Positions 31,954-63,487 of a stretch of DNA of 63,487 bases are shown one piece after another. Location of the stretch: contig NGBS01000313.1 in the NCBI GenBank assembly GCA_002245135.1, positions 62,001 through 125,487 on the forward strand, in the 5' to 3' direction. The position numbers and the translations under genes are program-made. A model generated the notes under the pieces. The model did no database searches. It saw nothing but the letters and a program-made list of their open reading frames with translations, and was not told where the DNA came from. Each line of letters opens with the position of its first letter. Position 1 is the first letter of the stretch. This DNA is from Proteromonas lacertae. Lineage: Eukaryota.

Positions 31954-33602
31954 CTAGAGTTCACCTAAAATTTTCTATGTACATTATATATATAAAACAT
32001 CTATAAATGATACCTTTCTCATTTGATAGCCTGGATGACTTGCTTTCATTTGATCAATAATTCTTGTAGGTAATATATACTCAGTAGAACTTGCTAAATC
32101 TTTTAATCCAATACTTTGAATATCACACAACGCTACACCCACGTCATCATCAACTACATTATAGATTCCTACAAAATTAATAATATCGTTATTCTATATA
32201 TCATTATATAAAGCTAAATTTAAATATATATATATATATACCATATTAGTAATAGGTACAAGATATAAATGATTCCAAAATGAAGTTTTACTTTTGGTGT
32301 AATTCTTATAACAAACACACATCTCTCTTCTATATTTAAGAGAATTAACAACAACAGTAGCTACTTGAATATCAGTATCATTACTATGAAATAGAGTAAT
32401 ATGTTGCATATATAATTCATTTTCTTTATAACCAGTTATTTCCAATAGCTTTTGTGAACTGTATATAATAGGACTTGTAGTATCTGAACAATCTAACACT
32501 ACAAAAGCAAGACTGGTTAATTTTATTTCATGTATAAATTTATTATCCAATTCACTAAATACATTATGACTAAATAATTGCAGTTGTTGATTCTTCTTTA
32601 TCGGTGAAGGTAGAATTTGTTGTATTAAAGTAGGAGTTGTTGATGTACTTTCACCTACAGCTGTAGTTAATGTTGATGGAGTTTGTATTTTATTCTGCAT
32701 TATATCTGGAGTAATTACAGTTGATTTGTACATAGTTAATCGCTGTATTGTTGAACTAGGAGTTTCTGTTTTATGAAGACTTGGAACTGGAATTGGTAAA
32801 ACTTGTTGTTGTTGTTGTTGTTGGATTTTATCCTTTTGCATTTGAATTGAAGGAGAAATTGATGATGATGATGATGAAGTTGATATAGATGTAGATGGCA
32901 TTAATGATAACAACTGTTGTTCTTGTTGTTGTAACGAAGGAGGTGGTTCAGGTTGTTGTTGCTGTTGTGGTTGTGGTTGTGGTTGTGGTTGTGGTTGTAT
33001 AACTTGATTCAATTGGTTAATATAATCATTCATTACAGATAGTTGAGTTATTTCATTAATACTACCATTATTATCATTACTACTACTAATTGTATTTGAA
33101 TTTACATTGTTACTACTATTTAGCATAAATTGGTTCATCCCATTGTACTGTAATGCAGTGGATGGATTAAAAATATTATTAATGTTGTTAAACTGATCAT
33201 ATAACTGCTTTTGTTGATATAATAAACTACGCAAATTTCGATTCTCTTCTTCTAATTCTGCATTTTTCTTTGCTAGTGATTCTATGTAGAACTTTTTTCT
33301 TTGTCTTGATTTCTTTGCAGATATTCTATTTCTTTCTCTTCTAATATGAATATAAATATTATTAAATACGAGTGTTTTATCCTGTCTTCCACTTCTTCAT
33401 CATTTGTTGGAGAAATATCCACTAAATAAATAAAATATGGAAAATTAATACTTTTATCAACTTTTCTTTTAAGTGGTTCAGTTGTTTCATTGTTTGAAAG
33501 TTGGATATTGGTAGAAGATTTGTCAAACTAATTAAAAACTATCTAAATAATTGATACCTCCTTTTTGTAATTGTTTTCATCACAATTTTTGGGGTTAATC
33601 AT
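31954..33602 (-). CDS. Aureochrome-like bZIP-LOV/PAS transcription factor lacking the photoactive cysteine
   Basis: bZIP RERNRISAKKSRQRKKFYIESLAKKNAELEEENRNL (~33340-33230). LOV-like FVVLD..SPIIYSSQKLLEITGY..TD..CVCYKNYTK..FWNHLYLVPI|NNDIINFVGI. Five GT-AG introns traced in frame. Confidence 0.85.
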
Positions 33603-40100: not shown

Positions 40101-43100
40101 CTGATGAATGATTATCCATTACATTTTTACAATTCTGAAGAAAATTCAAATTATTATTTCATTGATTCACTCTTATCTTATACAAATGGTTTAAGTTATT
40201 ATAGCCAATATTCTTTGAATTTATTACAATCAATTGATTTAAACATATTAAATGCTGATGTATTTGTAAGTGGTTATTTAAGTGTGTTAATATATGTAAA
40301 GGCATTAATATCTCAATCATTTTATCATGACAAACAGATAGGTGAATTATTACATGAAATAACAATTCCATTAAAAATGTCTTATAAAACATATTTCTCA
40401 AAAAATAATCAATTGAATTTAGTGACTAAGTTATTTAAACCATATCCATATCGAGAATATTTAATAAATTCCCATATTCATTTTGTTCCATTAGTTGATT
40501 ATGATTCGAAGATATGTGATTGTGGAAAAATGTCTTTAATATGTGTTGATCGAAAAGTAGTGAATATTGGATTTTTATATGATTCAATAAACTATCCAAT
40601 GGAATCAAAATTGTTAATAGTAACATCTAATTTGATATTAGATAATTACAATAGAAAGAGAGATAATATAAATAAAGTATATTACAAACCAATATATTTT
40701 GATATTGATAATCCCAAAGAAATCGAAAATGTGATTAAATCAATCGAATATAATAATATTAATCATATATTTGGTGGAATAAATCAAACTTATGTTGATA
40801 ATATAATTGCTTATTCCTCTAAAAAGAAAGTTCAAATTTGGTACACCAATAACAATTATGTAAGAAATGAATGTAATAAAAATGTGTTTAACTTTGGTCA
40901 ATCATTAAATGAATTATTTGAAATATTTTATGAATCACTAACCATCAATTCTATTGATTATTGTATAATAACGGATAATGAAGAAATTTATCAATCCAAA
41001 TCTTTCAACGGATATAATAATAATAATAACAATAATAAAATAATATTTATAAAAGAAGGAATATCAAATGAGATATTATTTAACAATATAATTTCCATAT
41101 TACCAAAAGGAGGTTATTTAATGATATATGTAAAACAGAGTGATTTGAAATTCTTATTAATGTTAGAAAATTATATGAACAGTTCATTTTTCAAATACAA
41201 ATATAATTATTATTTTATGAATGTCGAATATATATTTAATAAAGAATCAGAAATAATGAATAGATTATCCAATATATTTACATATTCCTTTGTAAGTGAG
41301 AATTGTTCAAGTGAATTTGTTGATTTGTTCAAATCATTTTATGGTGATAATAGCAATAAGAATAGATTTATTTACCCTTATGAGATATATGTAACAAATG
41401 CAATAATAACCTTTCTAGATTTATCCGAATCAATTGATTATAATACATCCAATATAGTCGAATATCATAAATCAATATTTGAAAGAAGATTTGTATTACC
41501 ATCAGGAGAACTTAAAATTTCTGCAGATTATTCATTTGTTTATCCTATATCTCAAGTAAAATATAAGAATAATCAATTTGTATATGGTAAAACTATCTAT
41601 ATTGATCCTGAAGTAACAATGAGTTATAATTCTAAATGTGATTTTCGAGATTCTGTTAATGTTGATAAAGAAATAATCAATATGTATTTATTATCCAACA
41701 AAGAAGAAGAATATTTTGAAATTTCATCCATTATTAATTCCTATTTGAAAGAGAGTAATAATAATACAAAATTCAAATTTTCATTGAAATTAGTACCATT
41801 TTATGATTTTGATCAGTTTAATAATTCCATTCAAAATCAACCATCGAATTCTATATATATAGGAATTCCATCAATGAAATATAAAAAAGAAATTCAGTTA
41901 ATATTGAAGAAGAAAGAAAGTGTGTTATTCTATGTAGGATATTCAGAGCCAAACAATTGTTATTCCAATATAATAAGTATAAATAATTACTTAAGTACAT
42001 ATATATTGCCAATAATACTACACATAAAAGAAAAATGTTCAAACCTAATAATTCTATACAATAAAAAGTCAAGTCTAAGTATAAGATCAGCAGAATTATT
42101 CAGAGATGAAGTAAAATATATGAATTTATCACCTTTATTATTTATAAATATAATCAACAGCGAAAGTCTAAAACAATTTATTTATGTGAATCAAAAATTG
42201 TTATTCGAACCAAATTGTATAATGAATTTTCTAGATAATAATTTCACATCCACATTAATTAATATATCTGAGAATATAGTATCTTATCCAATTAGATTAT
42301 TCAGTTTCAATGTTTATGATTATAGTTTTCCATATTCATCCTTAATACATCATTTTATAGTAACTAACTATAATCCGTTTGATAAATCAAGTGAATTGAT
42401 AGAAGAGATGAGTAGAAGAAGTGTGAGTGAATCAATAAAAACATATCCAATTGAAATATATTCCTATATGTCAGCCAAATACATATGTGATTATGTATTA
42501 AATCTAAAATCATCTGAATTTTTAGTGAATGAATTACTGAAGAAAATAAATGATATAGAAATATTACACCCTAATAATTTGAAAGTGAGAATAAACAATG
42601 CTAATTATTTAAATCAACCATTATTTATTCTATATCAGAAATCTGCTGGATTTGATTTTATTGAATCCTTCAGTATAAATGAAGAGACGGAAACATCTCC
42701 ATATCCTCTAAGAAGAAGATTGGTTTGTTCATTTAATGATGATAATGATGATGAAATAATAATTGAACCAATCAGATTTGGTTATATATACAGTCTAAGT
42801 AAAAATGAAATAACATCTGAAAGTTACAAGATATTATTAAATCAAATATTATCTTTATCTCACTTATCATTATTATATCCATTTATTAAAAGAGTAGGAA
42901 TAGAATATCATTTATATAATATTGAGAATGATGATAAGAAATGTGAAGATGGATTATTATATATGTCAAATCGAAATGTAGAATATTTGTTTAGTTCAAA
43001 TGATAATGAATGTTATAACGCCATATCCAAATTAATATCCAATTATCCTCAGATGATATATTTCTATTCTGGTTATACTTATTATAATGAATGTGGAAAA

Positions 43101-46100
43101 CAAATATTCTATACTGAATTATTGCCAAGTCAAATATTTCCTAGTTTATTAAGTGTTGTGGATTTTATGAAAATAGATGGTTCATTTGTTATTTATGATA
43201 ATGATAATATTCCATCTATTCAATATAAAACAATATTGGAGAATATAATATCAGAATATCATTTTAAAGTGAATGATTATATAGATAGAAATGATATTGA
43301 TAAATATAAATCCTATAATTAATAAATATAAGAATAATGCCTATATTTATGTAGGGAGTTTTGAATGTTTTAGTGAAGTTGTAGCTGATTTTAGATTAAT
43401 TGTTGGTGATGATGTATACTATTTACTATTTGCATCAACCAATCAATATTCTCTACCAGATTCATTTGTACATGATAAAAATTTGTATTTCTTCTCTTCA
43501 CCAATTTATGGAGATGAATATTTCGATGAATTTTTATATAAATATTCAATGAATAAAAGTGAACATATATTCAATTTAGAAACAACGTATATAAGTCATC
43601 GAATAATATTTGATATACTAAATGAAACAAATGTGAAAGATATTCACAACCGAAGTATATTCTTTAATAATATTTATTCAAAGAAGATAAAAGCGAATGG
43701 AAAAGAAATCTATTTCAATGGTAATAATAACATAAATCGACCATTACTAGTGAAATGTAACAATAATATATATAAAGAATTTACATATTTTATTGAATCA
43801 AGAATAAACAACACATTAATCTGTAAATTTGATGAAGATTTAAAAGTGGTGAATATGTTAATCTTAATAGATGAATATGAAGAGAAACTATATTTATATG
43901 AATTTATAAATATTCTGCTAAGTAATATGAACAGTGTGAAAGAACATATCTATTTCAATCAATCTTATGGATTATTCAATGAAAGTACATGTGATGAAAG
44001 TCTGAATAATTATTATGATAATCTAAACTATGATTTATTATTATACATATCTCCAAGAGTATTATATTGTAAAGACAATTTTATAAATCAAAATTCAAAT
44101 AAACCAATATTCATAATAACTAACAATGAAACTGAAACCTGTAAAGATAATATCTATATAAATGGAATGATAATTGAAGAATACATCAGTCCTTATTTGA
44201 CATATTCAATAAATGAAATAGTAAAAGTTAATTCTACAAAACTAAATAAATACCATGAAAAGTCTTTCTATTTAGTATTTTGGATTAGTGAAGAATATAA
44301 AAAGTATTTTGAAAATTTTATAAAAGAATTGAAGATACATTATGAATTAATGTATATCATATTTAGTAATGATTTTGATGAATTTATAGAGTATATCAAC
44401 ACATTAAGTGATTATTATATTCTTGCTTTTGCTGAACAGAGTGAAGAATTGATAGTTCAATTTTATAATTATCGTTTTGCATCACAAATAATAGTTTATA
44501 AATTGACATTTATGACTCCTACAATAACTAGTCATTCTGTTTCTGTTAATTCAATAAAGAGTTATGAAAATGAAAAGGATGATAATGATATATCATCTGC
44601 AACATTTTATAGAATGATGGATGATGCAAAAGGTTATTATGGCTTTTCATATGGTATTCAAGATTTTAGTAATTATATACCATCGATATATTCTACATTA
44701 TTATTTATAAAAGAAATAATGAGAATTAGTGATAGTGTAAAATATGATAAATATAAACAGTATTTATATGAAACAGAAATCGATTCTGTAGAAGGAAAAG
44801 TGAGATTAGATAAGAATAATATATTTAAGAAAAAATACTACTACGTAGATTTAAAATTAGTTATATATAGAAATGATTTCATATATTACAAAACTGAGAA
44901 TTATGAATGTAATATAAAGGAAAATAATGGTTTAATCCAAGTATTTCCATTATATGTTGGTTTATTTTTCTCTTATAATAATAAAACATCTTTTTTATCA
45001 ATTAATACAATATTGGATAGAATGTATATGTTAAGGAAAACAGTTCATATTCTAAAGAGATATTATATTTATCCTATTTATGGATCCTATAAACCTAATA
45101 GTAATTACACTGATGTATTTTTATCATTTTTGAATAATACAAAAGAAGATATATCAGTAATCTTTTTGACAATTCCTAGTAATGTTGATCCAAAAATAAT
45201 GGAAAAGATTTGTGATGAAAAGAAATTATTAATATTCAATATTGATTATTCAGTAAATGTGAATAGTAGATACTTTATAAATTCTGGTTTATCAATCAAT
45301 GTATATTCCAATTTTTTGTTTAAAAACACAATAAAGAAATCAACATTTATTTATATATTGGGAGATGAAAGTAGTTTCAAATCTTACAGACAATTATTTG
45401 ATTTATATGACAGTGCAAATATCAATTACACATTAATAGATATTGATTATCTTAATTCCGTAGGATTGGATTATCTTTCAGATTTAGTTATAAGATGTGA
45501 TGAATATTCAAAAGGACATTATTGTTCATTTGTAGTGTTAGTTACATATCGAGAAGCTTATTTCATTCCATCATTTTTTAATAGCAATCCTATGTATAAA
45601 GAGAATATGACATTTTTTATAGGAGAAATGGATCATTGGGATCCAGATTTTAGATTTTTAGATGGTTGGAATTATATTACAACATATTTTCATACATTTG
45701 ATGAAAGTAATTTAGATATAGTTGGAAAAGATGCAGCTGAATATAATGAATATATATTAAATACTCCATCTGGTCAATATGTTGATTTTTCTTATTCATA
45801 TCAAGAAATTGTTTATTCAACAACAGATATTTATATTCAAACTCTAAATAAAAGTATATCAATAAAACCTGATGTAGTAATTAATAATTTATATTACAGT
45901 GAATTTCATTCAGCTTCAGGAAGATTATATATAAGTGATAAGAATAGTGTAGAAAGAAGATTGTTCACAGGAGTATTTAATTATTCTACTAATTCATTTG
46001 ATATAAAATCCTACACATCAATCCTTTCTGCTTCATTATATGATAATTCATATTATACAAATATCACATATATTGGCATTTTATTAGATTATGATGAAGA

Positions 46101-48359
46101 TCATGAATTATTATCTAGAATCTTGTTATTATCAATAAATGAATTAATACTTGATGAAAATGCAAATGGAAAACAATATAAATCCAAATTATACATATTA
46201 TATCATAATGAAAATGACACAAGAATAATGACTGAATTGATAAATGATGATAAAGTGAATTTTGTGATGGGTTGTATTTCATTATACTGCAATGATTTAG
46301 TAATAAAATCAATGAAAAATAGAAACAACAAACTATTCTTTAGTTCAGTTGAAACTGAAAATCCAATTTGTGAAAAACATGTAATTAGTTCATCGTTATC
46401 ATTAAATGACAAAGTGAATATAACATTGAAATATTTGAAGATAGCTAAAACATCTAAAATAATATATTTATATGAAAAGCCATACCAATTAGAATTTATA
46501 AATGAAATGAATAGAGAAATGGACAGTGAAACAGAATCAATAATAATAGATGTTAATGAAAAGAGATTTGATAATTCAAGTTATATAGATTCATTATTGA
46601 ATAAAATTATAATGTAGTAATTCTGAATCTGTTGAAAGAATCGAGATTGAAGTCTTTTTTAGAGATGTATATTAAATCAAAATATACTGAAAATGTATTT
46701 AATCATATATTATACTATTATGATTATTATTATATTGGAAAAGAATTGAAAGAGAAATTGAATAACTTTATCATATTATCATCTTATAGTGGAGATACTC
46801 GTGATATGTCAGTGTTTCTATTTGAACAATATTTCCATGATCGTTTAGGTTCAGAATTAGTAATATCTCCAGAAATAGCTTCAGCTGATTGTTTATTTAA
46901 ATTGTTAGTATCATCTTATAGTGAAGCAATGAAAGTGTTAATCAATAATAATATTGATTTTAGTGGAGAAAATATAGTTGAATATACTCAAATATTGTCT
47001 CAAAGTATGTCAATGAATTGTGGACTTGGAAGGATCAAAGGAACAATGTCAAACACATTAAGTCATCAATTATATTTGAGTGAGATAAGTCAAACCAATA
47101 ACTTTATCAAAATGTATCCTGATTGGAGTATAATGATTGAACCATATAGTGATTTGAATAAAGAAAGATGTTATAATGGTCCAAGAATAGTAAATTATGA
47201 ATATAGTGAGAATACATTGATAATTGTATTAAGTGTATTTATAATCTTCACATTATTCTATATAATGTTATTGATACTGATAATTCGAAACAAACAACAA
47301 CATATAATAAAAAGATCAAGTTTAATTATTCTGATATATGCCATAATATCCAATTATCTAATTCTGATAATGTCAGTTGTAAAGAATTTCAATATGAATA
47401 ATGATTGGTTATGTAAAATTTATGATACATTTACAATTGCATGTGTGATTAATGCTATGTTGACAATTGTATTAAAATCTTGGAGAATTCATCTTATATA
47501 TAATAATAGCAAGATGCAAAGAGTAAGAATAACTAGTAAATCAATAATAATATTGTGTTTATCCTTAACATTGATGTGGATATTATATAGTTTATTAAGT
47601 GGTTTGATATATGATTTTGGTGTAGTAAAAATGAGTTTTTCTTCTGAATATAGTAATGAAGTGAAAGAAGTATATATAACTACCTGTTCATATAATGAAG
47701 TATATGATGTGATTGAAATGTTAATAATTTATACAATAGCAGGAGTTGGTATTTACTTTTCATGGTCAACAAGAAAAGTAGGTGATAGTTACAGTGAATC
47801 ACATGCTTTAATAACTTCAATATTCTTCATTTGTGTATTTATATTAGCTTATTTCAGTATATCTACAATGATAATGAATAATCCAGATGATCGATTGTTG
47901 TTTGATATTATTAGTTTAGGATTTGCAGGAATATTCTGTATTTGTTTAATGGTAATTCCAAAAATATATAATATCTACTTTCATACTGAAAAAATATCAA
48001 AGAATTTATGTTGTTTTAGTATAACGAAAGTATTTCCAGCTTCTGATACAACAACAACATCTTCTCCTCCAACCTCTTCAGAGCAACATCAACCTAATGT
48101 AGAAGTGAATAAAGAAAAAGAAGAAAATGTGAAAGAAGAGAATAGAAATAATGACAATAAAGAATCAGAAATGAAAGTAAGTCATATAAAAATCAACACA
48201 TTATGTGAGAATGGAAGTAATAATATCAAAATCACAATAAGAAATAATATAATTGATTTGAATAAGTATTTAGATAAGAATAATTCCAATTCATTTAATT
48301 CATCGACAAATAATGAAATTCCTGAGGAAACTAAAGAAAAGAAGATGATTATTGAATAA
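37111..48359 (+). CDS. Giant class C (GABA-B-like) GPCR with ~9 tandem periplasmic-binding-protein-like domains
   Basis: Signal peptide, then consecutive + strand ORFs (37111, 37478, 38546, 38793, 43291, 46632) separated by introns or 1-nt shifts. C-terminal 7TM with LKSWRIHLIY, WSTRKV..YSES and VIPKIY (7tm_3 motifs). Repeating F-Y-x4-E-x2-C-x2-N-I motif. Confidence 0.7.
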
Positions 48360-50067: not shown

Positions 50068-50663
50068 TTAATATATTGGATAACCTTGAGGTGGAGAAAC
50101 ATAATACTGTTGCTGTTGAGGAGGAAGGAGGAGGTTGAGTTCCATAATACTGAGGTTGTTGTTGTTGTTGTTGGTTTGGATCAGCATAATAAGGTTGTTG
50201 AGGAGGAGGTTGAGAAGGAACATAATAGACTATCGGTGTATTAGCAGAATTGCCTTGTTGATAAACAGGTTGATCTGTTTGAGGTATTGGATATCCTTGT
50301 GGTGGATATGCTTGTGGTTGTGGATAACTTTGAGGATATTGACCTTCCATTTCCACTTCAACATTCTCTTCTCCATTATTGCTATTAATTCTACTTGGTT
50401 TTCTATACACTACGAAATAAACAACTGTGCAAGAACAAATACAACAGCAAATTATAATTATTAGTACTACAATAACAACAATCACTCCTAAAGCCAATGC
50501 TGAACTATCATCAATATCAGTTGAGTTATATGGAGGACTATATGATTGAACAAGTGGATTTGTAATATATTCAGCAGTTAAAACATTATAACTTTTAGAT
50601 GTTTCATCTATTCTATCATAATAATCACCTGTTATTACAAGATTAAACAACTATTCACATTAT

Positions 50664-50711
<48 letters not shown>

Positions 50712-53179
50712 TATATATACTTGTTCTTTTGATAATTCATAACATGTTACTTCAATTGTCAATTCTACTCTGATCACCCTTTATAAAGTCTTGGAGGAAT
50801 TGTTATTACTTCAACGTTATTGTAACGATCTGGATACACTAAACCATTTGGATATATTATTGTGTCGTTTATTTCCACTGTTAAATCCAAGTCATTCAAT
50901 ACAAAGCTTCTTGAAGTCTTCTTCACTGGTGGATCATTCCACACTAATGTCACTTTGAACTTTTGCTTTGGATTATAATATACAGTTTTAGTGTATTTAT
51001 CTCTTTTAGTATAGAATCTATTATTATCTTTTATCAATTCTAATCGAAAGTGAGGATTATCTGCAAAATACAAAACCTTATCTAAAGAAGCAATTCCAAA
51101 TCCTTGTTTATGATTTGGCCATTCTTTGAATGTAACTTTTGCTCCTTGTTTTGTATAATATCCTTTTGCATTTTCACCACTATGAATTAACATTGCTTTT
51201 ACTAATGAAGAGGTTGGAGTAAACCCATTTCCTGATACTTTTGTTCCTGTTGGATAATATCCTTCCTGTAAATACTGTTCAATAATTGCAACAGCAGAAG
51301 CACCTAATGGAGTAGCCATTGATGTACCAGATTTAGTAACTACACAACAACTATTATAATCAACTGGATTATTTTGTGAAGCAGCAGAAGACCAAATTTC
51401 ATCTCCCATGAATGAAATATCTGGTTTTATTCTATCATCATTAGTAGGTCCTTGAGATGAAAAATATGTTATATAATATTTTGTACTACATTATAAATGA
51501 TAAAACATAAATATACTCTCTTGTGGTTGCATAGTATTGATGACTTGCTCCAACAGTAATTATATTTTTTCCTTGTGCTTGAGAGTCTATAGATATACCT
51601 CTAGGAAGAAATTAGATTAAAAAAATACGATAATTCACCTTCATTACCTGCAGCAAACAAAATGACCATATGCGGATTATTATATGCATATTCATCTATA
51701 CTATATGTTTCCATGCTATATTTGTAATATTCAGCTCCCCAACTGTTACTAGATATAATACTGCCATAATCCTTCATTCTATCAAAGTATTTTGATAAAT
51801 CTTCTGGAACTGTCAATCCATCATCTTTCACTTGTATATCAATAAATGCAATTTTACTATCTTTAGCTAAAGAGTAAATAATGTAATAAAAGAAAATATG
51901 ATTGAATTAATATATTGAAAAATGATATATTCGCTTCACTATCTTCATTTTGTAATGCACCAGCAGCTATTCCACAAACATGTGTTCCATGTCCGTCTCT
52001 ACAAATATAAACAATATATATATGAATTTATTATTATACTTTATATCACTTTTATCACCCCATGTACTTTCATATCCTTGTACTTTTCTATGATTTGACA
52101 GTTTAGTGTTATATTGTATTGATGCTGTTGTATCTCTAAATAAACAGTGAGACGTATCTAAACCAGTATCACCTATTCCAATTACTATATTCTTTCCAGT
52201 TAACTTATTTCCTAAATACTTTACACCAGTACTAAAGCTCTCTGTATATCTGAAATGATTATAGGCTTGATTAGCTATACAAAACAATAAAATAAAAAAT
52301 ATATTAATAGATACATTTCACTCCACATATTTTACTATTATTGTGTGAAGATCTTAGTGTATTATGTTTTATCTTCAATTTTGGATCTATTGATTCAATC
52401 ATTGGTTCTAATAGTATGTAACTTAATACTTCATCTTCATTTTCATCGTTTATTGATAACCTAATATAAGTATCAGAAGTATAATATTCAGAGAGAGATG
52501 AGTGCAATATTCGATAGTTAACAGAGTTAAGATTTCTCTTTAATAATTTATTTTCTCTTACCTTTTTGAAAGTATTTCTGTTGTTTTTCATCAATTTTAG
52601 TATGTTTTCATAATTAATAACTGATTTGTCTTTTTCACTTTTGACCTTTTTTGTCTTATAAAGCTTGGATGATTGTAGCTCATCAACATAGAAATCTACT
52701 CCATTCATTATCATATTCTTTTCTTCCTTGTTAGAATTATCTCGAAATTTAATAACATATTCATCAGATATTTTATCTAATGTCAATAGCTTTATAAGTA
52801 AGCTCAACTCTTCATACTCGAAACTACAACTTGGATGATTTGTAAAATAGTCTTTTATCTTATTTTCATATGTATAAAAAATCATAGCACTTCCTTTATC
52901 ACCTTTTATAAATTCTCTTCTTCCCAGTTCCTTTTCAAGATCTTCATTCAACACACAATCTGTTTTTACAACATACTCTTTGGGATCACTTGTAATATTG
53001 TAAAATGATTCATAATACTATATCAGAATAAATAAATAGTAAATGATTGAATGTAATACTCTATAAAATAATTTAGTATTCTCCTCATTTATATTGATAT
53101 AATCAATGTAGAATGGTTTTGCATCTGAAAAATGCACTAAAGCGATAGAGCAAATGAATAACAGAAATAGTTTTTTCAT
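50068..53179 (-). CDS. Membrane-anchored subtilisin-like S8 protease (KP-43/TagC type), copy 1
   Basis: Signal peptide MKKLFLLFICSIALV; IGDTGLD, GHGTHVCG, SNSWG, FAAGN, SGTSMATP; TLVWNDPP..NDLDL; TM helix, Cys cluster and P/Q/Y-rich tail. A 1-nt shift near 50126 gives the end YVSPPQGYPIY*. Confidence 0.88.
50671..50719. repeat. (TA)n microsatellite inside a subtilase intron
   Basis: About 20 TA units between the splice sites. Confidence 0.9.
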
Positions 53180-53244
53180 AATTGTTTTCATACACCTAAA
53201 ACGATCAAAAGATGTTAATTAAATAAATATGAATTTTGATATAT

Positions 53245-55989
53245 TTAAGGAGTAGGAACATTTATTTCTTCTGGAGATATTCTGTGATGATGTATTTCTT
53301 TCATTCTACAACGACATATACAATAACAACAAGCTAGTATCAAAAATAGAACAGCTACGCAAGCAGCTGATATTAATACTATATAAACAGGCTTCATTGT
53401 AGTTGATTCTGTAATACCACCATTCTCACTATCTGACTTCTTTGATGTTGGATTTACAATATATTGAGGGTTTTGACAAACAAGATCTACCTTCTTACCT
53501 GTAAAAGGATCAACAGAAATAATAGGTAATGGAAGAAGATTATATTCTTTAATTGGATCATTTTCATTATCATAGAATATACCAGTAATAACAAGTGAAT
53601 AATTCTGTGAAGAGGTTGAAATACTATCAGCACTAATGATTATTTCAGCAGCAAAATTTGATATAGTGTCATTACTATAATAGCATGGAGGAATAGTAAC
53701 AACTTGAACATTATTAGTATTATCTTCTTGTGATAGACTATTTGGATGGATTATTGTGTTATTCACTTTTACTTTTAAGTGTAAATGATTTAATAAATAG
53801 GATGTTGCTCTATAATCAACTGGTGGATCATTCCATACTAAAGTAACTTTGAATTGCTGTGTAACTTAAAAAAACATTAAGAAATACAATGACATTTATA
53901 AAAATATAAAAGAAAAGATATGTTAAAGTAATATTTGTATGAATGAATCTCATTTGAAGAAATACTTTCTTCTTCTAATAATGATAATCGAAAGTGAGGA
54001 TTATCTGCAAAATATAAGATTCTATCTAAGGAAGCAATTCCAAACCCTTGACGATTGTTTGGCCATTTATCAAACAAATTCTTAGATTCTTGTCTTGAAT
54101 AATATCCTTTTGCATTTTCACCACTATGAATTAACATTGCCTTTACTAATGAAGAGGTTGGAGTAAACCCATTTCCTGATACTTTTGTTCCTGTTGGATA
54201 ATATCCTTCCTGTAAATACTGTTCAATAATTGCAACAGCAGAAGCACCTAATGGAGTAGCCATTGATGTACCAGAGAGTTGAAAGTAAGAGCAATGCTCA
54301 TAATTATCATTCTCTATTGCTTGTGATGAATATATACTTCTTCCCATTACAACTATATCAGGTTTGATTCGATTATCATTAGTTGGACCTAGTGAAGAGA
54401 AATATGAAATATAATATCTCGAACTATTCAGTATATACATAATAGTAATAATAGAATATATATACTCATCTGTTTCATCTTCATTAAAATCAGGTCTATT
54501 ATTTGAACCAACAGAAATCCCATTTTTGAATTGAGCTTCTGAAGTTATTGTTGGATATCTAAATAATAATAACAATTATATTATACGGATAATAACCATA
54601 GTTATTAGCAGCTATAAGTGCAACATGAGTAGGATTTGCATATAAGAATCTATCAAGATTATAAGATTCTATTGTATATTTATATTCATCAGTTCCCCAA
54701 CTCATACTTGAAACAATACATCCATCATCCATTAATAATTTTAAATATTCTTCGCCAATGTCAATTGGTGTATATATATTTACACCACCTTCTCCTAAAT
54801 CCCAAAATAATATTTTACTATCATATGCTAAAGATTAAAATAAATGTTAAAAATGAACTAAATAACAAACAATAACTATAGGAGGGAAAAATGATATTTT
54901 TGAACTATCGTCAGTTATACTATATCCTGAAGCAATACCACAAACATGTGTACCATGTCCATTACTATATACAATACAATACAAATACATACTTTGTATC
55001 TGTACTATCAACATAAATGAAATACTCAACTACTTTCCTATGATTCATGTTTATATTATTATAAACAATATTATTGTTTTTATCATAAAACATACAATGA
55101 TATATATCTAAGCCACTATCTCCAATTCCTAATAGTATATTTTTACCTGATAATTGGTGTTTCCAAGCTATTTCTTCACCTGTACTTAGACTTTGTAAAT
55201 ATTTTATATGACTAAAATCATCACTCTTTAATTGTCTACAGGAACTTGTGTGATTATTGCATGAATATTCTTCTTGAATAATTGGAATAATTCTCTTTTT
55301 ATGATTAATATAAACACTATCAATTTCATTTCGAGTGAGTAAATAACTTAAGATTTCATTCACTGATTCTGGCTCTATATACACTCTAAAACAAATTAAA
55401 TAAATAAACAATAATACAGAATATGTTTCAATGAAGATGATTTTGGCTTTAAAATACGAAATGAATTGAATTTTAATCGTCTCTTTAATGATTGTTTATG
55501 TGATTTGTCTTTTATCTTTTTTCTTATACTCTTTGTGTCTTTCATAAGCTTAATTATCCTTTCATTGTCAATTACGTCGTCTAATACTTTTGTTTCCTTC
55601 ATCTTTGTTTTATATGGTGATATTATGCTATTTACTTCATTCAAGTAATCTTCAACTTCATTCAATAGATGTATTAACTGATCTTCACTTTTGAGGTGGT
55701 TTTCTCTAAATTTTATTATATATTCATTATTTGTTGAATTTTTATTCTTAATAAAAATCAATTTCATAATTACACTCATTTCTTCATATTCTAGAGTGCA
55801 ATCTTTATATTCAGAAAAACAATTCTTTATTTCACTTTCATTAGCATATATAATCATAGCTGTCTCATTAACACCTGATATAAACACACTTTTACCAAAC
55901 CATCCTTCAAAATCTACTCCTGAACTACAATTTGTCTTAATAACATATTCTTTTGGATCATTTTCAAATCTTCTAAATGATTGGTGGTA
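53245..55989 (-). CDS. Subtilisin-like S8 protease copy 2, first exon missing or displaced
   Basis: IGDSGLD, GHGTHVCG, RIKPDIV, SGTSMATP, TM helix and Cys tail. Homology to copy 1 extends to the intron-1 acceptor (TAG at 55990-55992) and then stops. Confidence 0.8.
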
Positions 55990-56629
55990 CTATAAAATAT
56001 ATGTATAACCGTAAGAATATCACTGTATGTGGGTAAACCGTACCAGACTATTCTTAGGTGCCTTCTACAGATAAGAATAAGCGATTTGAGTGTGAATTAG
56101 TTTTTGGTACGGGTTATACTGGAGCAAGCGGTGAATTTTAAATTGTGTATATATTTTAGTGTGTGAATAAATTTATGGGTCAAATTCTATTTTTATATTT
56201 TTAATAGTTTTTAGCGTAGGATAATAGAGAAATAGATAAGTAGCTACCTGTTCTACCCCGGCAGGGTAGCTACTTTATAGAATAAGAAATGTATTTCTAT
56301 GTAAGTAAGTAGCGTGTCCTGTGTAGCCTGACTAGGACTTAGTGATTAAATAGTGTGATGGCCAAGCTACAGAATGCGTTCTTACTTTTTTTTTGGTTAT
56401 TTTTTTCATTTATCAATTTATTCATGGATTTATATACTGTAGTTAAAAACATTCAAAAGAATTTAAATAGTATCAAAAATATATATTTAAAGAATTATCT
56501 GCAGTATTCTATATTTTTTACTAAATCGAAATTCTGACGAGAAACTGTTGTTATAAACAGAAAAAAGAAACAGTTTTGATTTTCCTGAAATTTTAGAAAA
56601 AACCGTTTTTTATCAAAAAAATATAAAAT

Positions 56630-57109
56630 ATGTGTGCTTCAGTAAACTTTGCTTTCTTTTGTTCATTTAGAAATAATGAAGATTATTTAGATAAGTGTAT
56701 ATGTGGAACATGTAAGTTTTACTTATATTTTAACCATAATATAAGTGCAGTTTTAGATAGCCCATTACCTAAGGAAGAGATAAAGTCTTATAATGAATTC
56801 TGTGCTATTTGCCATCAAAAGATGTGGACAAAGTATAGTGATAAGAGATATTATATGATGCTTTTCGATATTAAACCATCAGTAAAACCAAGAGGATTAA
56901 ATAGACATTATTTTGCAGTGTTTGATAAGTATATTGAATGGTTAACACTACCTGAAGGAATGGGAAGTGTTCATTTGAAGAAGAATCCTATGTTGAAACA
57001 TTATGTAAAGAAGAATTATATATTTGATGATAGTGATGATGATGAGGAAGAAGAAGCACAAGAAGAAGTTAAAGGAAACAATGATCAAACTACGATAAAC
57101 ATAGTCTAA
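56630..57109 (+). CDS. Viral hypothetical protein, Cys-rich (CxCxxC...CxxC) with acidic tail
   Basis: 159-aa intron-less ORF with CICGTC and CAICH, a possible Zn ribbon. Confidence 0.55.
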   Translation: MCASVNFAFFCSFRNNEDYLDKCICGTCKFYLYFNHNISAVLDSPLPKEEIKSYNEFCAICHQKMWTKYSDKRYYMMLFDIKPSVKPRGLNRHYFAVFDKYIEWLTLPEGMGSVHLKKNPMLKHYVKKNYIFDDSDDDEEEEAQEEVKGNNDQTTINIV

Positions 57110-57245
57110 ATTTTAAAAACGAATCTTTATCTTAAAATGATTTGGGACAGGGTTTAAAAATATGCGTAATTTAATAAAAATCATATAATATAATAAAAAT
57201 ATAATAAATTTTATAATAAACATAATAAAATAATCATAATAAAGA

Positions 57246-58031
57246 TTAAAATGGTTCTGTAACACCTGTATCCATCCACTCTGTTATAATAACTTGAGGT
57301 GGGAATGCTTGATATGAATATGCATCAAGACCTTTTCGTTCTATATAAAGATTACATTTATTATTATTATTTCTTAATATAGGCCAAAAACATCCATAAT
57401 CATTAATTGCAGGTTGTGAAGTTTCATTTATTACACCTTGTATAGGGAAGTATATTCCATTACTACCATCTACAAAGTATGTTTCTAATAATTTGTTATA
57501 ATATTGTTGCAATAAATCTTCTTTACCTGGTTCAGCTTTAATAACATGATTGTCATCTAGATATAATATAAATCCATAACCATCATCATGATTTTTTAAA
57601 ACAAGGCCATTATATATTTTGATTCTCATAAAATGTTCAAACATTTGAATTTTTATAGGTACTTTTACAGTAGATTCATATTGATTGATGGAACCATCTT
57701 GAAATATATAGAAATTAACTGACCAATATGTATATTCAGTATGCAATAATTTAGGTGATACAGAATTATTAACTATTGTAGTGCTACCTCCAGAGCTATT
57801 ATTTACAACATTATATATTTCTTGACATTTACCATATATAGTATTTGTAGTAGTTTTGATATCATTAACAGGTGTAACTATATTATTTATTTGAGAGTCA
57901 GTATGATTATTAATAGGTTTAACAATAGTATCAGGATCAGTAGGTTGTATATTTATTTTGTCAGCTATATCTTTAGCAAGCTTATCTGTATCAATATTTA
58001 TATCTGAAGTATTTCGTTCCCCAATAAACAT
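57246..58031 (-). CDS. Viral hypothetical protein, possible fibre/spike
   Basis: Probable ATG at 58031 (MFIGER...). N-terminal helical/repetitive part, NNSSGGSTT linker, aromatic beta-rich C-terminus. Last gene of the structural block. Function is a guess. Confidence 0.5.
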   Translation of the reverse strand: MFIGERNTSDINIDTDKLAKDIADKINIQPTDPDTIVKPINNHTDSQINNIVTPVNDIKTTTNTIYGKCQEIYNVVNNSSGGSTTIVNNSVSPKLLHTEYTYWSVNFYIFQDGSINQYESTVKVPIKIQMFEHFMRIKIYNGLVLKNHDDGYGFILYLDDNHVIKAEPGKEDLLQQYYNKLLETYFVDGSNGIYFPIQGVINETSQPAINDYGCFWPILRNNNNKCNLYIERKGLDAYSYQAFPPQVIITEWMDTGVTEPF

Positions 58032-58075
58032 TTTTTGAATTAATAAACAATAAAATAATAAAATTAATAAAAACA

Positions 58076-58837
58076 TCAAGAAACTTCAGAATGATCTTCA
58101 ATCAAAATATTAAAGTTAGCTCTAAACACTTTTTTAACATTATCAATATATAAGAAGTTATATTGTGGCTTAGTAACAGCTAAATATAACTCTTTAAATG
58201 TTTCATATTCAGGTATCCATATATTCAATGAGTTATATAAGTCAAACAAATTTCTGTTACTCAATCCATAAAATGTTAAACAATAATCTACTTGTGATCT
58301 TGCTGAAGGTACTATATCAGTAATATATTGACTACTAATTATAATTTTTGATTTTAAATGTCTATTTTCTTTCATTAATACTGGTATGATATTAGCTGTT
58401 TTCAACTCTAAACTAAGATCATCAAATATTATAATATGTTCTGCATACTCATAATTATCTTTGTTTGTATCATCAATTGATTTCATTAACTTCTCTACTA
58501 AATTATCTCCTGAGTAAGGATCATATAAAGAATCGTTTTCATCATAACTAATTTCATTATAATCTAACAACTCTTTAATTGAATCATATATTCTATCTTG
58601 TTTGATTGTACCTACGAAAAAATGTACATGTTGTTTTTTCTTATATTTTGGATCTATAATATGTCTTAATATATTGTATATCAAAGTGGTTTTCCCACTG
58701 TTCTTACGTGCCACAATAAAAATATTACAGAAAGGCTCGTTAAAGTAATCATAACCCAGAATTTTCTTAGGATCAAATGACTCACCACCATCAACAGGTT
58801 CAATTTGTATGTTATTTATTTTTTCAAATTTAAACAT
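58076..58837 (-). CDS. A32-like (FtsK/HerA) DNA packaging ATPase
   Basis: Walker A IFIVARKNSGKTT, Walker B HIIIFDD, ENRH arginine motif and IIISSQ sensor, as in Polinton/virophage/NCLDV ATPases. ATG at 58837. Confidence 0.92.
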   Translation of the reverse strand: MFKFEKINNIQIEPVDGGESFDPKKILGYDYFNEPFCNIFIVARKNSGKTTLIYNILRHIIDPKYKKKQHVHFFVGTIKQDRIYDSIKELLDYNEISYDENDSLYDPYSGDNLVEKLMKSIDDTNKDNYEYAEHIIIFDDLSLELKTANIIPVLMKENRHLKSKIIISSQYITDIVPSARSQVDYCLTFYGLSNRNLFDLYNSLNIWIPEYETFKELYLAVTKPQYNFLYIDNVKKVFRANFNILIEDHSEVS

Positions 58838-58907
58838 AGTACGTGTATTTATTATGTAGTGAGAAATCAAAAAATAAAAATAGAAGTCAATAATAAAGTA
58901 TTATTAC

Positions 58908-60325
58908 TTATACTACTTTTTCAACACCCCTTGGTCCAATAATCAATTGTTTACCAGTAATTATGTAGAACTTATGATGAATTGTACTTAGATTATTATT
59001 AGCATCAAATCGTTGATTTGAGCAATCCAAAGTAATTTTTAAATCACTTGCTAAGTCTTTACCAGCTCTTAATTTTAATTCAGTTAATCGATCACTACTG
59101 AAATTTAGAACATCAAAAAATGTATTGGGAAATGATAATGTACTACATTTATCATATATTGTATTTTGAATAATATTTCTCATATATTCCCATGTCTGAT
59201 ATTTTGCTGGATATAAATAATCAGGTGTATAAACGAAATCATTAATTTGCCATCTTATTCTATCTTGATTTTGATCAAAAGGAATAGTATCTCTATTATA
59301 TGCATCATTATAATATGCTCTGTACAATATAAATTTAACATAACTTCCTATGCTACTATTAATACTGAAGTTATAGTTAAAAGTATTACAACCAGATATT
59401 GGATCTTTAGTGATTTGAACTATATTAAAATCAGTAAAGTCAATAGGATGATGAGTTGAATAATTAATGGTATTAGCATTACATGTTGGATCTTTATTAT
59501 AACAAATGTAAAGTCTAGGGTTAATAATTCTCATTCCAACATGTTGTTGCCATGAATTAATCCAAACAGAACCATTACTATGATGCATCCAATTCATTAT
59601 AGGAGCAAATGTGAATTGAATATAAATGACTTCACCAAAATAAATATCATTCTTCAAAGCTAATATGGTATTATAGAAATCTGCAAAATGAAATCTACAG
59701 TATAGTTTTCCATGTAATATATCTTCTGTTGTTCCCATTTCTTCCCAATAATTCCAAACACCTCCATTTGCATTTAAAGTAGAATTAGAATTACATAAAG
59801 TTGTTTCAGCTATTTTATTATTTCTAATGCGTAAGCCATCAAATAAATATTCATAATAATGATAATCTTTTATATCATAAGGATACTGATTAGCAATTTG
59901 ATGAGCTAAATCTCGATATTCATTATAACTACTATCTAAATCACATAGAAGTGTTCCAGTTTTATTGTATACTTTGATAGTTCCAAAATTCATTGAATTC
60001 TTTAAATTTATATGATCTAACATTTTACCAGAAGTAGAATCAGTTACAGGTGAAATAGGTAATTTCCAATTTCCTGAACCTGAAGCTGCATGATCTCTTT
60101 TTGACCTGTAGTATAATCTAATTCAAATTCAAAGTAACTTTTAGATAGATTAACACAATTATCACCAGATATTTCAAATGTAATAGCATCACTGTTTGAA
60201 TTTAAAGATAAAACAGTCTCATTTCTGCTTTGGTTAGGTGTAACTAAAATATGATTGTAGACTGGTATATAAGCTGGCACAATGCTTTCATGTTTTTGTG
60301 AATTAGGTACAGCAGTGATTGACAT
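58908..60325 (-). CDS. Putative double jelly-roll major capsid protein (~472 aa after one frameshift correction)
   Basis: N-terminal ITFEISGDNCVNLSKSYFEFEL is a typical Polinton/PLV MCP start. Adding one A to the A5 run (60098-60102) fuses ORFs 60044-60325 and 58908-60023. Beta-rich, and located between penton and ATPase. Confidence 0.75.
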
Positions 60326-60378
60326 ATTTTATGTTATTTTAAAAAATCAAAAAATGCTTAAAAATAGCAAGAAATTTA

Positions 60379-61351
60379 TTAATACAAAATAATCTCAAAA
60401 TAAATAGGTAAGTTATTTAAATCAATTGCATAACCATCTTGTTGAGAGACTGATATATTCATTCGTTGATATTCGTGATATTGCATCTTTTTAGTTGTCC
60501 ATTCAATTTGTGGATTAGTGAATGTAGTATAATCTGCATTTATATCAGTTACAGGTATATTTGCTAAAACCATTGAATTCTCACCACTATTAACCCAGTC
60601 ACATCTAATTTGTATGAATGACACCCATAGTAAAGAAGGCTGATTTGGTAACAAATTAGAATAATAATTAAAATCTTTACTGAAATATGCATCACTTAAA
60701 TGATTTGCATGATAAATTGATATACTTTTATTTATTTCATCTAAACCAAATAACTTATATGCTAAGTTAGGGAATTCCATACTAAAATCTGTAAAGTAAT
60801 ATTTTCCGAAATGAGTAATATAATTAAATTGTAACTTTAATCTATTTTCTGAAGTTTTTTCAAATTGAAGTACATCTGTTTGATCATTTACTTTACGAAA
60901 TGGAAATCTATTTGCAAAATCTTCATCTGGTAATGGTGCTATTACATTATCAAATGCATAAAAAGTAAAATCTAAGAGATTTCTAGCAAAATAATCTAAT
61001 AATTCTTTTCCTGTATATTTTCTTTGAGGTATTTTAATATCAATAGTTTTATTTATAAGGTCCATTTTGGTTTTCAGGGGATGCCCATTTTATTGGATTT
61101 GTTTCATCTGGATTAATGCAGCTATAATAAGTAAAATTAAAGAGTATATGATCATTTACTTCGTCTTGTATTGTATAGAAGTTATTTGGTATAACTGCAG
61201 TAATTAAACTCATATATTGATATTTTTCAGTTATAGTTGGAGTATTAATACATCTTGTCCATCTATTTGAAAATTTTGAATCATAGTCTGATGTAGTTAA
61301 GAACAATGATCTTCTATTATTTATAACATTATTACCATCTTTAGGTTGCAT
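60379..61351 (-). CDS. Putative minor capsid (penton) protein (~323 aa after one frameshift correction)
   Basis: SLITAVIPNNFYTI..ND, IKIPQRKYT..EL, IQIRCD..VLANIPV and MNISVSQQDGYAIDLNNLPIYFEI match Polinton/PLV penton motifs. An extra base near 61053 splits the ORF. Confidence 0.8.
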
Positions 61352-61428
61352 TATGTTTTATAATTGTTGAGAAATATTAAAATATAATTTTATTTGAATT
61401 ATTCTTTAATTTATATATTGTTATATAT

Positions 61429-63487
61429 ATGCAACCACAACCTCAAGATAACAATTCAAATGATGAAGAAGATGAACCAACAGATGATGATTATGAATAT
61501 GAAGAAGATGAAGATAATGTACCTATTGATATGAACAGAATAAGACATAGAAGAAGACATAGAAGGAATCAAGTCATACCATTTCAAGATATAAGCGAAG
61601 ATGATTTGAATAACTATGTGAATCAAGAAGTGAAAAGATTTAACAAAGCATTGATTATGCAATATAGACTAATTCCTATAGGATGGCCAAATCATGAATT
61701 TAATAGAATATATAATTTATATGATGAACATATGAAAATGTTTAATTGGTGTAAGAATTTATTTGTAACAGGTCCTTTTGCACATGGTAAACCATTAGAA
61801 GCTTATAATCCCAAAATTAGCAGGAAATGAAAATTCTGCTAATGCAAGAGAATGTGGAATTTTTAAAACCCGTATAGCAGATGGTATTGATAAATTGTGT
61901 ATGGCATCTGATTTTATATTACAAAGAAATCCATTTGTTGTTTTACACCCAAAAGAGAGAATAGGTGTTACACAACTAGAAAATAGAAGAATTAAAAAAA
62001 CTCATTATGAAATTGATGAAAGACATCCAGAACCAGAAAATGATTTTAACATAATGAATAATGAACATTATAATAGTGCAGCTGAAATAAGAGCAGAAAA
62101 TGTTATGCAAAATAGACATGATAATATGGTAAGAGGAGTATTAGTAAACGCAGACAATGGAAGTAATGATAATAACAATAATAACAACAATGGAAATAAT
62201 AACAACGATAATAATGAAAATAATAACAACAATGCAAATTATGATTTAATTAGCTTTTGTGATTCTCTGAAAGATAAATTAAAGTTTTATATAGGTCGTT
62301 TAATGAGAACTAAATTTTGGTATTTAACAAATCAAAAAGAAGAAACAGCTTATTCAATTGCGTTAATCATATACAATGCGTAACTGATTTGTATATATTA
62401 GCTTTATATTATATACCAATATTAAAAGATAAGTTAAGTGGTAATTATCAAAATGATAATGAATATACTTTACCATATCATCCTGATAGAAGAAATTTTA
62501 TGGGATTACCAGATGGTGATAATAGAACAGGATATAGATATAACTATTTAGCAACTATACAAAAAATATTAACAGAAGCTCATGTACCACAAGGTCAAAT
62601 CAATACAAATATATTTGCTAATCCTATAACTTTTAGAATGAATAGAGCTTTAGATACACAACTTAACCGTCAAATTAAACATAGAAGATCAGTTCCAGCT
62701 TATGTTGGAATGAATGTTGCAGATCATAGAAATTGGAGATATGTTGCACCAGCTAATTATCCTCCTGCTCATCCATCAATTACTGCAGATTTGATTGATA
62801 GAAATGTTAATGCATTTTATAATGCATCACCTGCAAATAGTGATAGTGAAGATAATTATAATAATCCTATCAAGTAGTGGATACTGAAGAAGATTCAGAC
62901 ACTTATGATCTTGGTGATATGAATAATCAAATACCACCTCCTCCTTTACCACCAAGACCTATACCAGCAAGAACTGATCAACAACAACAACCACCTCCAC
63001 CTCCTCCTGTATCAAATGTATCTAGATCTAATGTAATTAGTTTAAGTAATCAATTTAATCCTCATCATCTTATACCATCTGATAGATTTTCATTTTTAGT
63101 ACCAGATGATTTGCTTAATGCTATACCAAATCCAAATAGAGACTTTAATAAATCTCATAGATTTTTAGCTAATAGAGAAAATGGTGCAAAAATAGGTGTA
63201 ACTAGGATAATACAAGAGTTTTATACACAATTGTTAACAAATAATGGTAAAATCTATTCAATTGATGCATTTATACATAACCATAATCCACCTTGTACAA
63301 TTGTAGATGAAAATTCAAGCAAGAGTTATATGTTCTTTACTGATTGGGTTAGAGAAGAAAACATCAATTTACCTTTATTACCTAGATCTAAATATAATGC
63401 AACTGAAGTAAATGATATACCTCAAAATTACAGTAGTATCAATATGATGTTTTGGATATGATTACAATAGAAATATATATTCATATA
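61429..63487 (+). CDS. Large viral ORF, N-terminal part (3' partial, ~4 frameshifts), function unassigned
   Basis: ORFs 61429, 61895, 62317 and 62877 can be fused by single-base corrections near 61811, 62357, 62866 and 63435, and the frame stays open to the window end. Acidic, Arg-, Asn- and Pro-rich tracts; no catalytic motif visible. Confidence 0.55.

Follow-up and report, generated by a model that had tools for sequence, protein, structure and literature searches.

Probable left end of a Polinton-like virus, likely inserted in a subtilase gene of Proteromonas lacertae

Gene content of the locus

The window was a 63,487-nt stretch of contig NGBS01000313.1 from the Proteromonas lacertae assembly GCA_002245135.1, and the element described here spanned positions 56003–63487. 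Its core set comprised three minus-strand genes, encoding a genome-packaging ATPase (58076–58837), a major capsid protein (MCP; 58908–60325) and a likely penton (60379–61351). An ORF without assigned function came directly after the ATPase on the same strand. These four genes had been named in an earlier sequence-only reading of this DNA, and all of them were found at these positions.

The ATPase gene was intact and encoded 253 aa. Its product matched the Pfam family Pox_A32 (E = 1e-4; 22.3 bits, slightly below the cut-off of 22.8), STIV B204 (E = 4.6e-4) and, additionally, a phage terminase PHROG (E = 2.5e-5). The cellular HerA and FtsK families, a grouping with which would have counted against the earlier reading, were absent from its matches at E ≤ 1. 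A precomputed PF04665 assignment was present in 52 of the 107 homologs and any other family in none, and one database homolog shared 93% identity. Judged by these sequence matches, the product is an A32-like packaging ATPase, which is a feature of the Polisuviricotina.

The MCP gene (~450 aa) was interrupted by one frameshift at an A-run near position 60100, which left two minus-strand pieces in the assembly (60044–60325 and 58908–60023/60122); tblastn recovered the region in two frames with no stops. Its homologs were 294–495 aa long, five of them 406–495 aa, and shared 41–75% identity. The homologs had no match to the Pfam NCLDV or virophage capsid families at E ≤ 0.05, and searches with the MCP alignment returned no relative from viral, metagenome and prokaryote genome contigs and no match among PDB sequences. 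An intact homolog (P0005), which shared 47% identity with the window piece, was modelled in place of the window protein (pLDDT 61). With Foldseek, this model matched 157 PDB chains at E ≤ 1e-3 (best E = 7e-11), led by PRD1-like, mavirus and Sputnik MCPs, and the matches to mavirus and Sputnik were no better than those to other double jelly-roll (DJR) MCPs. With VIA, viral DJR proteins filled the top 14 rows, of which the first 13 had Z scores of 9.8–15.3, and the best non-viral row reached 6.8. Going by the model of this intact homolog, and both window pieces being homologous, the MCP is predicted to be a DJR protein as the earlier reading had expected, again a feature of the Polisuviricotina. 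The A32-type ATPase and the DJR fold of the MCP homolog together supported the claim of an endogenous element of the Preplasmiviricota type.

The likely penton, or minor capsid protein (~320 aa), also contained one frameshift, near 61045, and was present as two pieces (61049–61351 and 60379–61065). Four intact homologs measured 315–322 aa. The model of a homolog (pLDDT 61) retrieved the mavirus penton first in Foldseek at E = 2e-3, with adenovirus pentons also at the top, and no match had E ≤ 1e-3. In a wide VIA search the Z scores did not exceed 5.7, which was level with unrelated beta-sandwiches; in a second look, the top 24 rows were pentons or penton-derived (Z 4.7–5.7). HHalign between the window penton and the penton-like genes of aquatic relatives (see below) gave only 6% and 54%, and in a search with the profile of those genes the two window pieces ranked first of 81 (E = 0.003 and 0.004). 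These matches are suggestive of the single jelly-roll proposed earlier. The gene is likely a penton, with weak fold support that comes from the homolog model.

The ORF after the ATPase (57246–58076, minus strand) encoded 258–276 aa, depending on the choice of start, with a T/N-rich N-terminal part. It had no Pfam match, and its PHROG matches reached only E = 0.012 and 0.028. The best ESM Atlas score was 0.82, which is below the reliable range and serves as a lead only. From its position, one might guess at a fibre or receptor-binding protein. A second ORF (56630–57109, plus strand; 159 aa), which was missing from the earlier description, was Cys/His-rich and without assigned function. The codon model scored it as coding (+18.9 in frame vs. 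−98 and −137), and it probably belongs to the element. The sub-threshold Pfam matches were to zinc fingers, and the product is possibly zinc-binding.

A large gene without assigned function diverged from the likely penton on the plus strand (61429–63487) and possibly runs past the window end. Its ATG (61429) and that of the penton (61351) were 77 nt apart, as the earlier reading had described, but the single large ORF of that description consisted of four overlapping frames (61429–61827, 61799–62380, 62314–62874, and 62865–63458). Since the codon model changed frame at the three overlaps, we infer one gene, which would have at least 680 codons with acidic/Asn-rich and Pro-rich stretches. It had no significant Pfam or PHROG match, and its last piece matched nothing in phages or IMG/VR. 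The Ulp1-type protease of the aquatic relatives was considered for this gene because it has the same divergent position there; the relatives' protease profile gave E = 0.1 at best, and this identity was unsupported.

State of the copy and its junction with the host gene

Stop-free frames of at least 90 codons covered 98% of positions 57246–63487, compared with 61–85% in four host blocks, and the flanking subtilase genes were intron-rich. This agreed with the switch from intron-rich host genes to packed, intron-less ORFs noted earlier. However, many host genes in the window had exons of 1.3–4.5 kb, and therefore the intron-less state alone is not diagnostic of the element. The GC content was 26.5% in the host part (1–56000) and likewise 26.5% in 57246–63487, so that a GC step was absent. 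Rfam gave no matches within 55500–63487. The Blastocystis 3′ motif was not enriched (10 matches vs. 6.3 expected, and 10 of 100 shuffles had as many). In the visible 7.5 kb of the element, a Pfam search detected no protease, polymerase or integrase, as the sequence-only reading had reported.

Five to six frameshifts were counted in 6,469 nt of the element, compared with six in 27,487 nt of checked host genes, a density ~3.5–4 times higher (p = 0.04 and 0.015). The breaks resembled single-base slips, and similar ones were observed in host genes. The ATPase, MCP and penton genes contained no in-frame stop in ~1,045 codons, although 6% of all point changes would create one. In multicopy EVEs, frameshifts have been described as often being assembly artefacts (PMC10120064). 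Since comparable breaks occur in host genes and nonsense codons are absent from the three core genes, most of the frameshifts are probably assembly errors; the higher density leaves room for some real decay. The integrated copy is probably a young one that is still close to intact. The frameshift excess over the host rate would also suit a decayed, inactive relic with real frameshifts and a lost replication or integration module, as would the missing GC contrast and the absence of protease, polymerase and integrase from the 7.5 kb. Such a relic is unlikely given core genes free of nonsense codons, an ATPase that is intact and so close to a database homolog, and slips of a kind also found in the host.

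An intron-rich subtilase (S8) gene occupied the minus strand to the left of the element, from exon 2 onward (53200–55989, the low coordinate being approximate), and was delimited by homology to a tandem paralog. This paralog had a Peptidase_S8 match; its exon 1 (at 53191) comprised 44 codons and its intron, as read from the sequence, 42 nt, and its exon 2 was homologous. A remnant of the 3′ end of host intron 1 was located at 55990–56002 (minus strand), with the acceptor AG at 55990–55991. A tblastn search with the exon 1 of the paralog found no counterpart in 56000–63487, and the signal-peptide exon 1 was absent from the window. This suggests that the element splits the host subtilase gene by insertion. 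The insertion point would lie at about 56003–56008; neither the right terminus nor a target-site duplication was visible in the window.

The non-coding segment at 56003–56400 is the likely left terminus and a candidate terminal inverted repeat, according to its composition, hairpin and repeats. Its GC content was 34% and its CpG o/e 0.85, compared with 26.5% and 0.36 in the host. A short motif at 56007 recurred at 56036 and, in inverted orientation, at 56108; it also occurred at four places in the host part and at one further place in the element (61867). A perfect 11-bp hairpin was formed by arms at 56238–56248 and 56265–56275, and the fold of the left end had a z score of −2.17, with one of 100 shuffles equally stable. 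Within the window, where one end only is visible, there was no second copy of this candidate terminus. That the element extends to the window end with a higher error rate would fit an assembly chimera, made by fusing a host contig end with a free (extrachromosomal) virus or with a copy that belongs to a different locus. However, the break lay ~12–18 nt upstream of a splice acceptor that was intact, the non-coding end after it was structured, which would be expected of a terminus, and related MCPs have been reported as hundreds of genomic copies (PMC10120064), which makes a chimera still less probable than a relic.

Relatives and interpretation

The MCP profile of the window family aligned with a wider, distantly related MCP family over 409 columns (HHalign 99.8%, E = 1.5e-28). 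The MCPs of this wider family adjoined an ATPase homolog in environmental contigs of 15–21 kb, together with a D5 helicase, an Ulp1-type protease and a weak tyrosine-recombinase match; one locus, L020, was 20.2 kb long and had a direct terminal repeat. In a quick tree, a long branch separated the clade of the window from these environmental viruses, which resemble Polinton-like viruses (PLVs), the trees being built without reference MCPs of the Aquintoviricetes (PgVV/TsV) or the GKS/Trimcap groups. The clade was diverse, with 12 MCP and 13 ATPase rows in well-supported groups, and all close homologs found derived from Logan assemblies only. For six MCP/ATPase homolog pairs the longest contig was identical in size, which suggested that the two genes are linked elsewhere. 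The clade is now connected with free environmental viruses that have a known replication module. That the region derives from a giant virus (Nucleocytoviricota) or a virophage instead of a PLV is highly improbable, for although the best VIA rows of the MCP model were the faustovirus, PBCV-1, ASFV and mavirus MCPs and the ESM Atlas neighbours included NCLDV and virophage capsid clusters (recognition value below the reliable range), the VIA matches had 6–11% identity, the Pfam capsid families of both groups were not matched, and the sequence-level relatives have small genomes of 15–21 kb.

The region 56003–63487 is likely the left end of a PLV (Polisuviricotina) that appears to have inserted itself into the first intron of a subtilase gene in its protist host, likely an opalinatan stramenopile. 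Following established Preplasmiviricota biology, MCP trimers and penton pentamers would form an icosahedral shell, into which the A32 ATPase would pump a genome of ~15–25 kb; between rounds the genome would reside in a chromosome of the host, into which it would be inserted by an integrase whose gene would lie past the window end. The replication and integration module beyond the window may well consist of a tyrosine recombinase and a D5-type primase-helicase, as guessed from the closest relatives whose gene context is known, and a combination of rve and pPolB is a less favoured alternative.

Hundreds of protist genomes are known to contain endogenous PLVs, and thus one further copy is unsurprising. 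Little is known about the DNA viruses of gut stramenopiles, and a complete element would therefore be worth describing. More tentatively, and at present doubtfully, the element could represent an active, unclassified PLV lineage specific to anaerobic gut opalinatans. This lineage would derive from protease-encoding aquatic PLVs, make up about one-tenth of the host genome, still insert into and disrupt host genes for secreted proteases, and have a gene set of its own, with a large Pro/Asn-rich and a fibre-like protein without recognized relatives. If so, it would offer a cultivable gut protist for testing if PLVs can replicate on their own or depend on a giant virus.

Comparison with known systems

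Polintons (Polintoviricetes) and virophages (Virophaviricetes) have a module of MCP, penton and A32 ATPase and integrate into chromosomes, as the element, with its likely penton, appears to do. Unlike Polintons, the element had no pPolB, rve integrase or protease in its visible 7.5 kb; unlike virophages, it had no protease there, and its MCP homologs did not match the Pfam virophage MCP. The Blastocystis MELD virus, defined by pPolB and integrase, is likewise a midsize DJR-type virus from a gut stramenopile dataset with unrecognizable virion proteins (Starrett et al., 2021; PMC8502044). The genes that would bear on the MELD-type label of the earlier reading, those for polymerase and integrase, would lie outside the window. 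The second BFVD match to the MCP homolog model was a 420-aa "MELD virus sp." protein with unstated host (TM 0.52, 12% identity).

In the PLV-like loci L001, L003, L004, L015, L020, L022, and L025 of the aquatic relatives, a homologous ATPase (~30%), an MCP and a penton-like gene were clustered and without introns. The MCP profile of these relatives matched the window MCP piece at E = 1.6e-22, with an MCP identity of 12–18%. In contrast to the window, where none was visible, they encode a D5 primase-helicase and an Ulp1-type protease, and L020 has a weak tyrosine-recombinase match.

Among the closest known systems is an MCP cluster of Proteromonas lacertae itself, listed in Tables S3/S4 of Bellas et al. 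(2023; PMC10120064) with 285 hits and a DJR fold by ColabFold/Foldseek. It is given there as a "new" cluster, number 25 by column count, with an estimated 5.7 of 52.2 Mbp of the genome. The name Proteromonas does not occur in the main text of that paper, where the genomes are not described. The cluster representative has 450 aa, similar to the window MCP (~450 aa), and 54 of 80 residues were identical by eye in five picked blocks; several gene calls of the cluster were short (304–371 aa) and resembled broken calls. The window MCP very likely belongs to this cluster, as judged from blocks compared by eye beside a cluster criterion of at least 25% identity over 30% of the length. Since a homologous cluster had already been catalogued in those tables, the earlier suggestion of an undescribed viral lineage is weakened, and the element is a new example of a PLV group that was already known but barely described. 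Those tables catalogue the cluster by its MCP alone, and to what was otherwise a table entry the window adds the genes for a likely penton and an ATPase, their order and a candidate terminus, which is a modest gain.

Gene content and capsid proteins of the viral segment

The view of the element was limited to the 7.5 kb that lie within the window (56003–63487), and all ORFs named in the sequence-only reading were found there. On the minus strand, these were an unknown ORF (57246–58076), an A32-type packaging ATPase (58076–58837), the major capsid protein (MCP) in two frames (58908–60325) and a penton candidate, also in two frames (60379–61351). The diverging large plus-strand ORF does start at 61429, 77 nt from the penton candidate, but it consists of four overlapping frames rather than one. 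A codon model trained on the element's other viral ORFs switched frame at every overlap, and we therefore infer a single gene, which would have at least 680 codons. The model also marked an additional coding ORF of 159 aa (56630–57109). The GC content was 26.5% on either side of the junction, with no change.

A profile search with the MCP against 1.84 billion representatives gave 241 matches at E ≤ 1e-3, including 12 at E ≤ 1e-30. Seven homologs, every one from the Logan assemblies, shared 41–75% identity; five of them were 406–495 aa long, and since their alignment spanned both MCP pieces of the window, a single frameshift was fixed near 60100. The intact homolog P0005 was folded from an 8-sequence alignment (pLDDT 61, pTM 0.58), and its model matched viral double jelly-roll MCPs, as had been proposed, in both Foldseek and the wide structure search VIA. 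With Foldseek, 157 PDB chains reached E ≤ 1e-3, the best of them being the MCPs of PR772/PRD1, mavirus, Sputnik, iridovirus and PBCV-1. In VIA, ranks 1–14 were viral double jelly-roll proteins, the top 13 with Z 9.8–15.3 (for example, faustovirus, Z 15.3, rmsd 5.6, 323 aligned), and the highest non-viral row was at 6.8. BFVD agreed, with all matches at 8–13% identity, and its second match (TM 0.52, 12%) was an uncharacterised protein of "MELD virus sp.". A quick tree with 56 rows included 11 close homologs of near-full length, the first 35 distant matches of 420–510 aa and nine MCPs from environmental loci, without named reference MCPs; in it, a long branch (SH-aLRT 100) set the close group (12 rows) apart from the rest. 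By HHalign, this group was homologous to the distant one over 409 columns (99.8%).

The 60379–61351 product is likely a penton. Four intact homologs (315–322 aa) spanned both window pieces, and the model of one homolog, poor in its jelly-roll part, placed the mavirus penton at the top of Foldseek, followed by adenovirus penton bases. However, that top match had E 2e-3, nothing in Foldseek reached E ≤ 1e-3, and pentons were tied with unrelated beta-sandwiches in the wide VIA search. In a further VIA listing, the top 24 rows were pentons or penton derivatives (Z 4.7–5.7, high rmsd). With a profile of penton-like genes from environmental relatives, the two window pieces ranked first of 81 fragments (E 0.003 and 0.004); HHalign of the penton candidate against these genes gave low probabilities of 6% and 54%.

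Packaging ATPase and environmental relatives

The top Pfam match of the ATPase was Pox_A32 (E 1e-4; 22.3 bits against a cut-off of 22.8), and HerA/FtsK families were absent among the six matches listed at E ≤ 1. Its PDB sequence matches were exclusively STIV-type B204 packaging ATPases, and a phage terminase PHROG also matched (E 2.5e-5). A precomputed PF04665 assignment was carried by 52 of 107 ATPase homologs, and another family by none. A quick tree without an outgroup had 107 rows, fragments and matches outside 235–310 aa having been dropped and eight locus ATPases added; the window ATPase fell inside a 13-row clade (SH-aLRT 98). Three homologs from Lithocolla globosa in EukProt (P0023, P0032, and P0033) formed a clade of their own, a hint that this protist may harbour related elements.

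An alignment search with the ATPase found 34 metagenome loci and one IMG/VR locus at 26–39% identity. The distant MCP profile was matched by an ORF in 18 of the 34 metagenome loci and the penton-like profile in 15, both profiles having been built partly from these loci. The larger contigs among these relatives (15–21 kb) encoded a D5-type primase-helicase and an Ulp1-type protease. One environmental contig locus, L020 (1–20167), appeared to be a complete genome resembling those of Polinton-like viruses (PLVs). It carried the MCP, the ATPase, a penton-like gene, a D5 helicase, a protease homolog and a weak tyrosine-recombinase match (E 0.007), and its 79-nt direct terminal repeat would fit a circular assembly that is complete at about 20 kb. 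Loci L001, L003, L004, and L015 belonged to the same group, for which no match among named PLV groups was found. In the close clade, the two members of six MCP/ATPase homolog pairs had longest contigs of the same size, which is circumstantial evidence that the two genes are linked.

Host genes, proposed insertion site and frame breaks

Intron-rich genes were present in the host part of the window, together with Hsp70-like paralogs, a bZIP-PAS protein and a class C GPCR-like gene, which indicated a eukaryote. The bZIP-PAS protein (32194–33396, minus strand) has an aureochrome-like architecture, here in what is probably a gut protist, and presumably resembles the stramenopile factors of that kind. 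The match of the MCP to a catalogued P. lacertae cluster, described below, suggests that the host is likely an opalinatan such as Proteromonas. A near-continuous frame of about 9.6 kb (38784–48359, plus strand) carries a 7tm_3 (class C GPCR) domain at its end and periplasmic-binding-like sequence upstream; judged from the sequence, it likely encodes a giant receptor, some 3,200 aa long, and its two breaks, near 43300 and 46600, are likely indel errors. Between 15940 and 26005, on the minus strand, lie four divergent Hsp70-like paralogs whose low-complexity inserts vary; an intron-less gene (21549–23402) that we take to be transketolase-like interrupts them. Two SAP-domain paralogs (334–5571, plus strand; 61% identical) flank or are fused with a P-loop NTPase ORF with a weak nSTAND3 match, an arrangement which we regard as reminiscent of Crinkler/RHS-type families.

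Next to the element, the minus strand carries a head-to-tail pair of subtilase paralogs. The left paralog, as read from the sequence, has a 44-codon signal-peptide exon followed by a 42-nt intron. The right one retains the acceptor (55990–55991) and a homologous exon 2, and its exon 1 was not found in 56000–63487. We infer that the element inserted in intron 1 of the right gene; exon 1 would then lie past the far end of the element. The 400 nt beyond 56003 showed higher GC and CpG, mild structure (z −2.2) and short inverted motifs. In these tandem secreted subtilase genes (50400–55989), a 300-nt stretch of the catalytic region was 89% identical, above the rest, suggesting possible gene conversion or strong constraint.

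Five frame breaks were found in the element, two confirmed by homologs and three by the codon model, with a possible sixth at 63460. Breaks occurred in host genes as well: an Hsp70-like gene had one near 18120 and another near 17965 (by paralog tblastn), a further one lay near 16090 (frames judged by eye), and frames that overlap with no intron visible marked two in the 9.6-kb receptor gene and one near 35575. The rate was 5–6 per 6,469 nt in the element vs. 6 per 27,487 nt in 11 long host stretches picked by hand (p 0.04 and 0.015). Homolog-aligned frames contained no stop codons, which occurred only where one alignment overran a frame break. Such frameshifts in multicopy viral regions are described by Bellas et al. 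(PMC10120064) as frequent artefacts. Assembly error is the better reading for most of the breaks, and some real decay of the element may have accompanied it.

Comparison with described elements

The element had been read as a possible undescribed lineage. This reading is weakened, as a homologous P. lacertae MCP cluster is already catalogued in the supplement of PMC10120064. An MCP of 450 aa from P. lacertae, with ColabFold/Foldseek confirmation, is listed in Table S3, and 285 P. lacertae matches fall into one unnamed "new" cluster of Table S4 (cluster number 25 by column count), whose elements are estimated at 10.9% of that genome. Five blocks of the window MCP were identical to the P. lacertae MCP, by eye, at 13/18, 9/15, 14/20, 9/15, and 9/12 positions; these are picked conserved blocks, and they overstate the overall identity. 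Proteromonas is never named in the main text of that paper, and the ten Blastocystis assemblies shown in its Table S1 have no MCP count. No description of a whole Proteromonas PLV genome was found in the open-access papers and preprint main texts consulted; the parts examined of PMC12129017 and bioRxiv 10.1101/2024.03.23.586382 contained no such element.

In PMC7805220, the PLV core is given as MCP, mCP, and ATPase. MELD is defined operationally in PMC8502044, and the Blastocystis element described there carries pPolB and an integrase. According to bioRxiv 10.64898/2026.10.13.758929, replicases reassort against MCP type; thus, the replicase of the relatives is a weak guide to that of the element.

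We consider it quite likely that 56003–63487 is the end of a real endogenous PLV in the full sense of that reading, and we hold the viral origin of the ATPase, MCP, and likely penton genes with greater confidence still. P. lacertae PLVs are treated as known in bioRxiv 10.64898/2026.07.28.741278, and the element adds one more case to an already known kind of virus.
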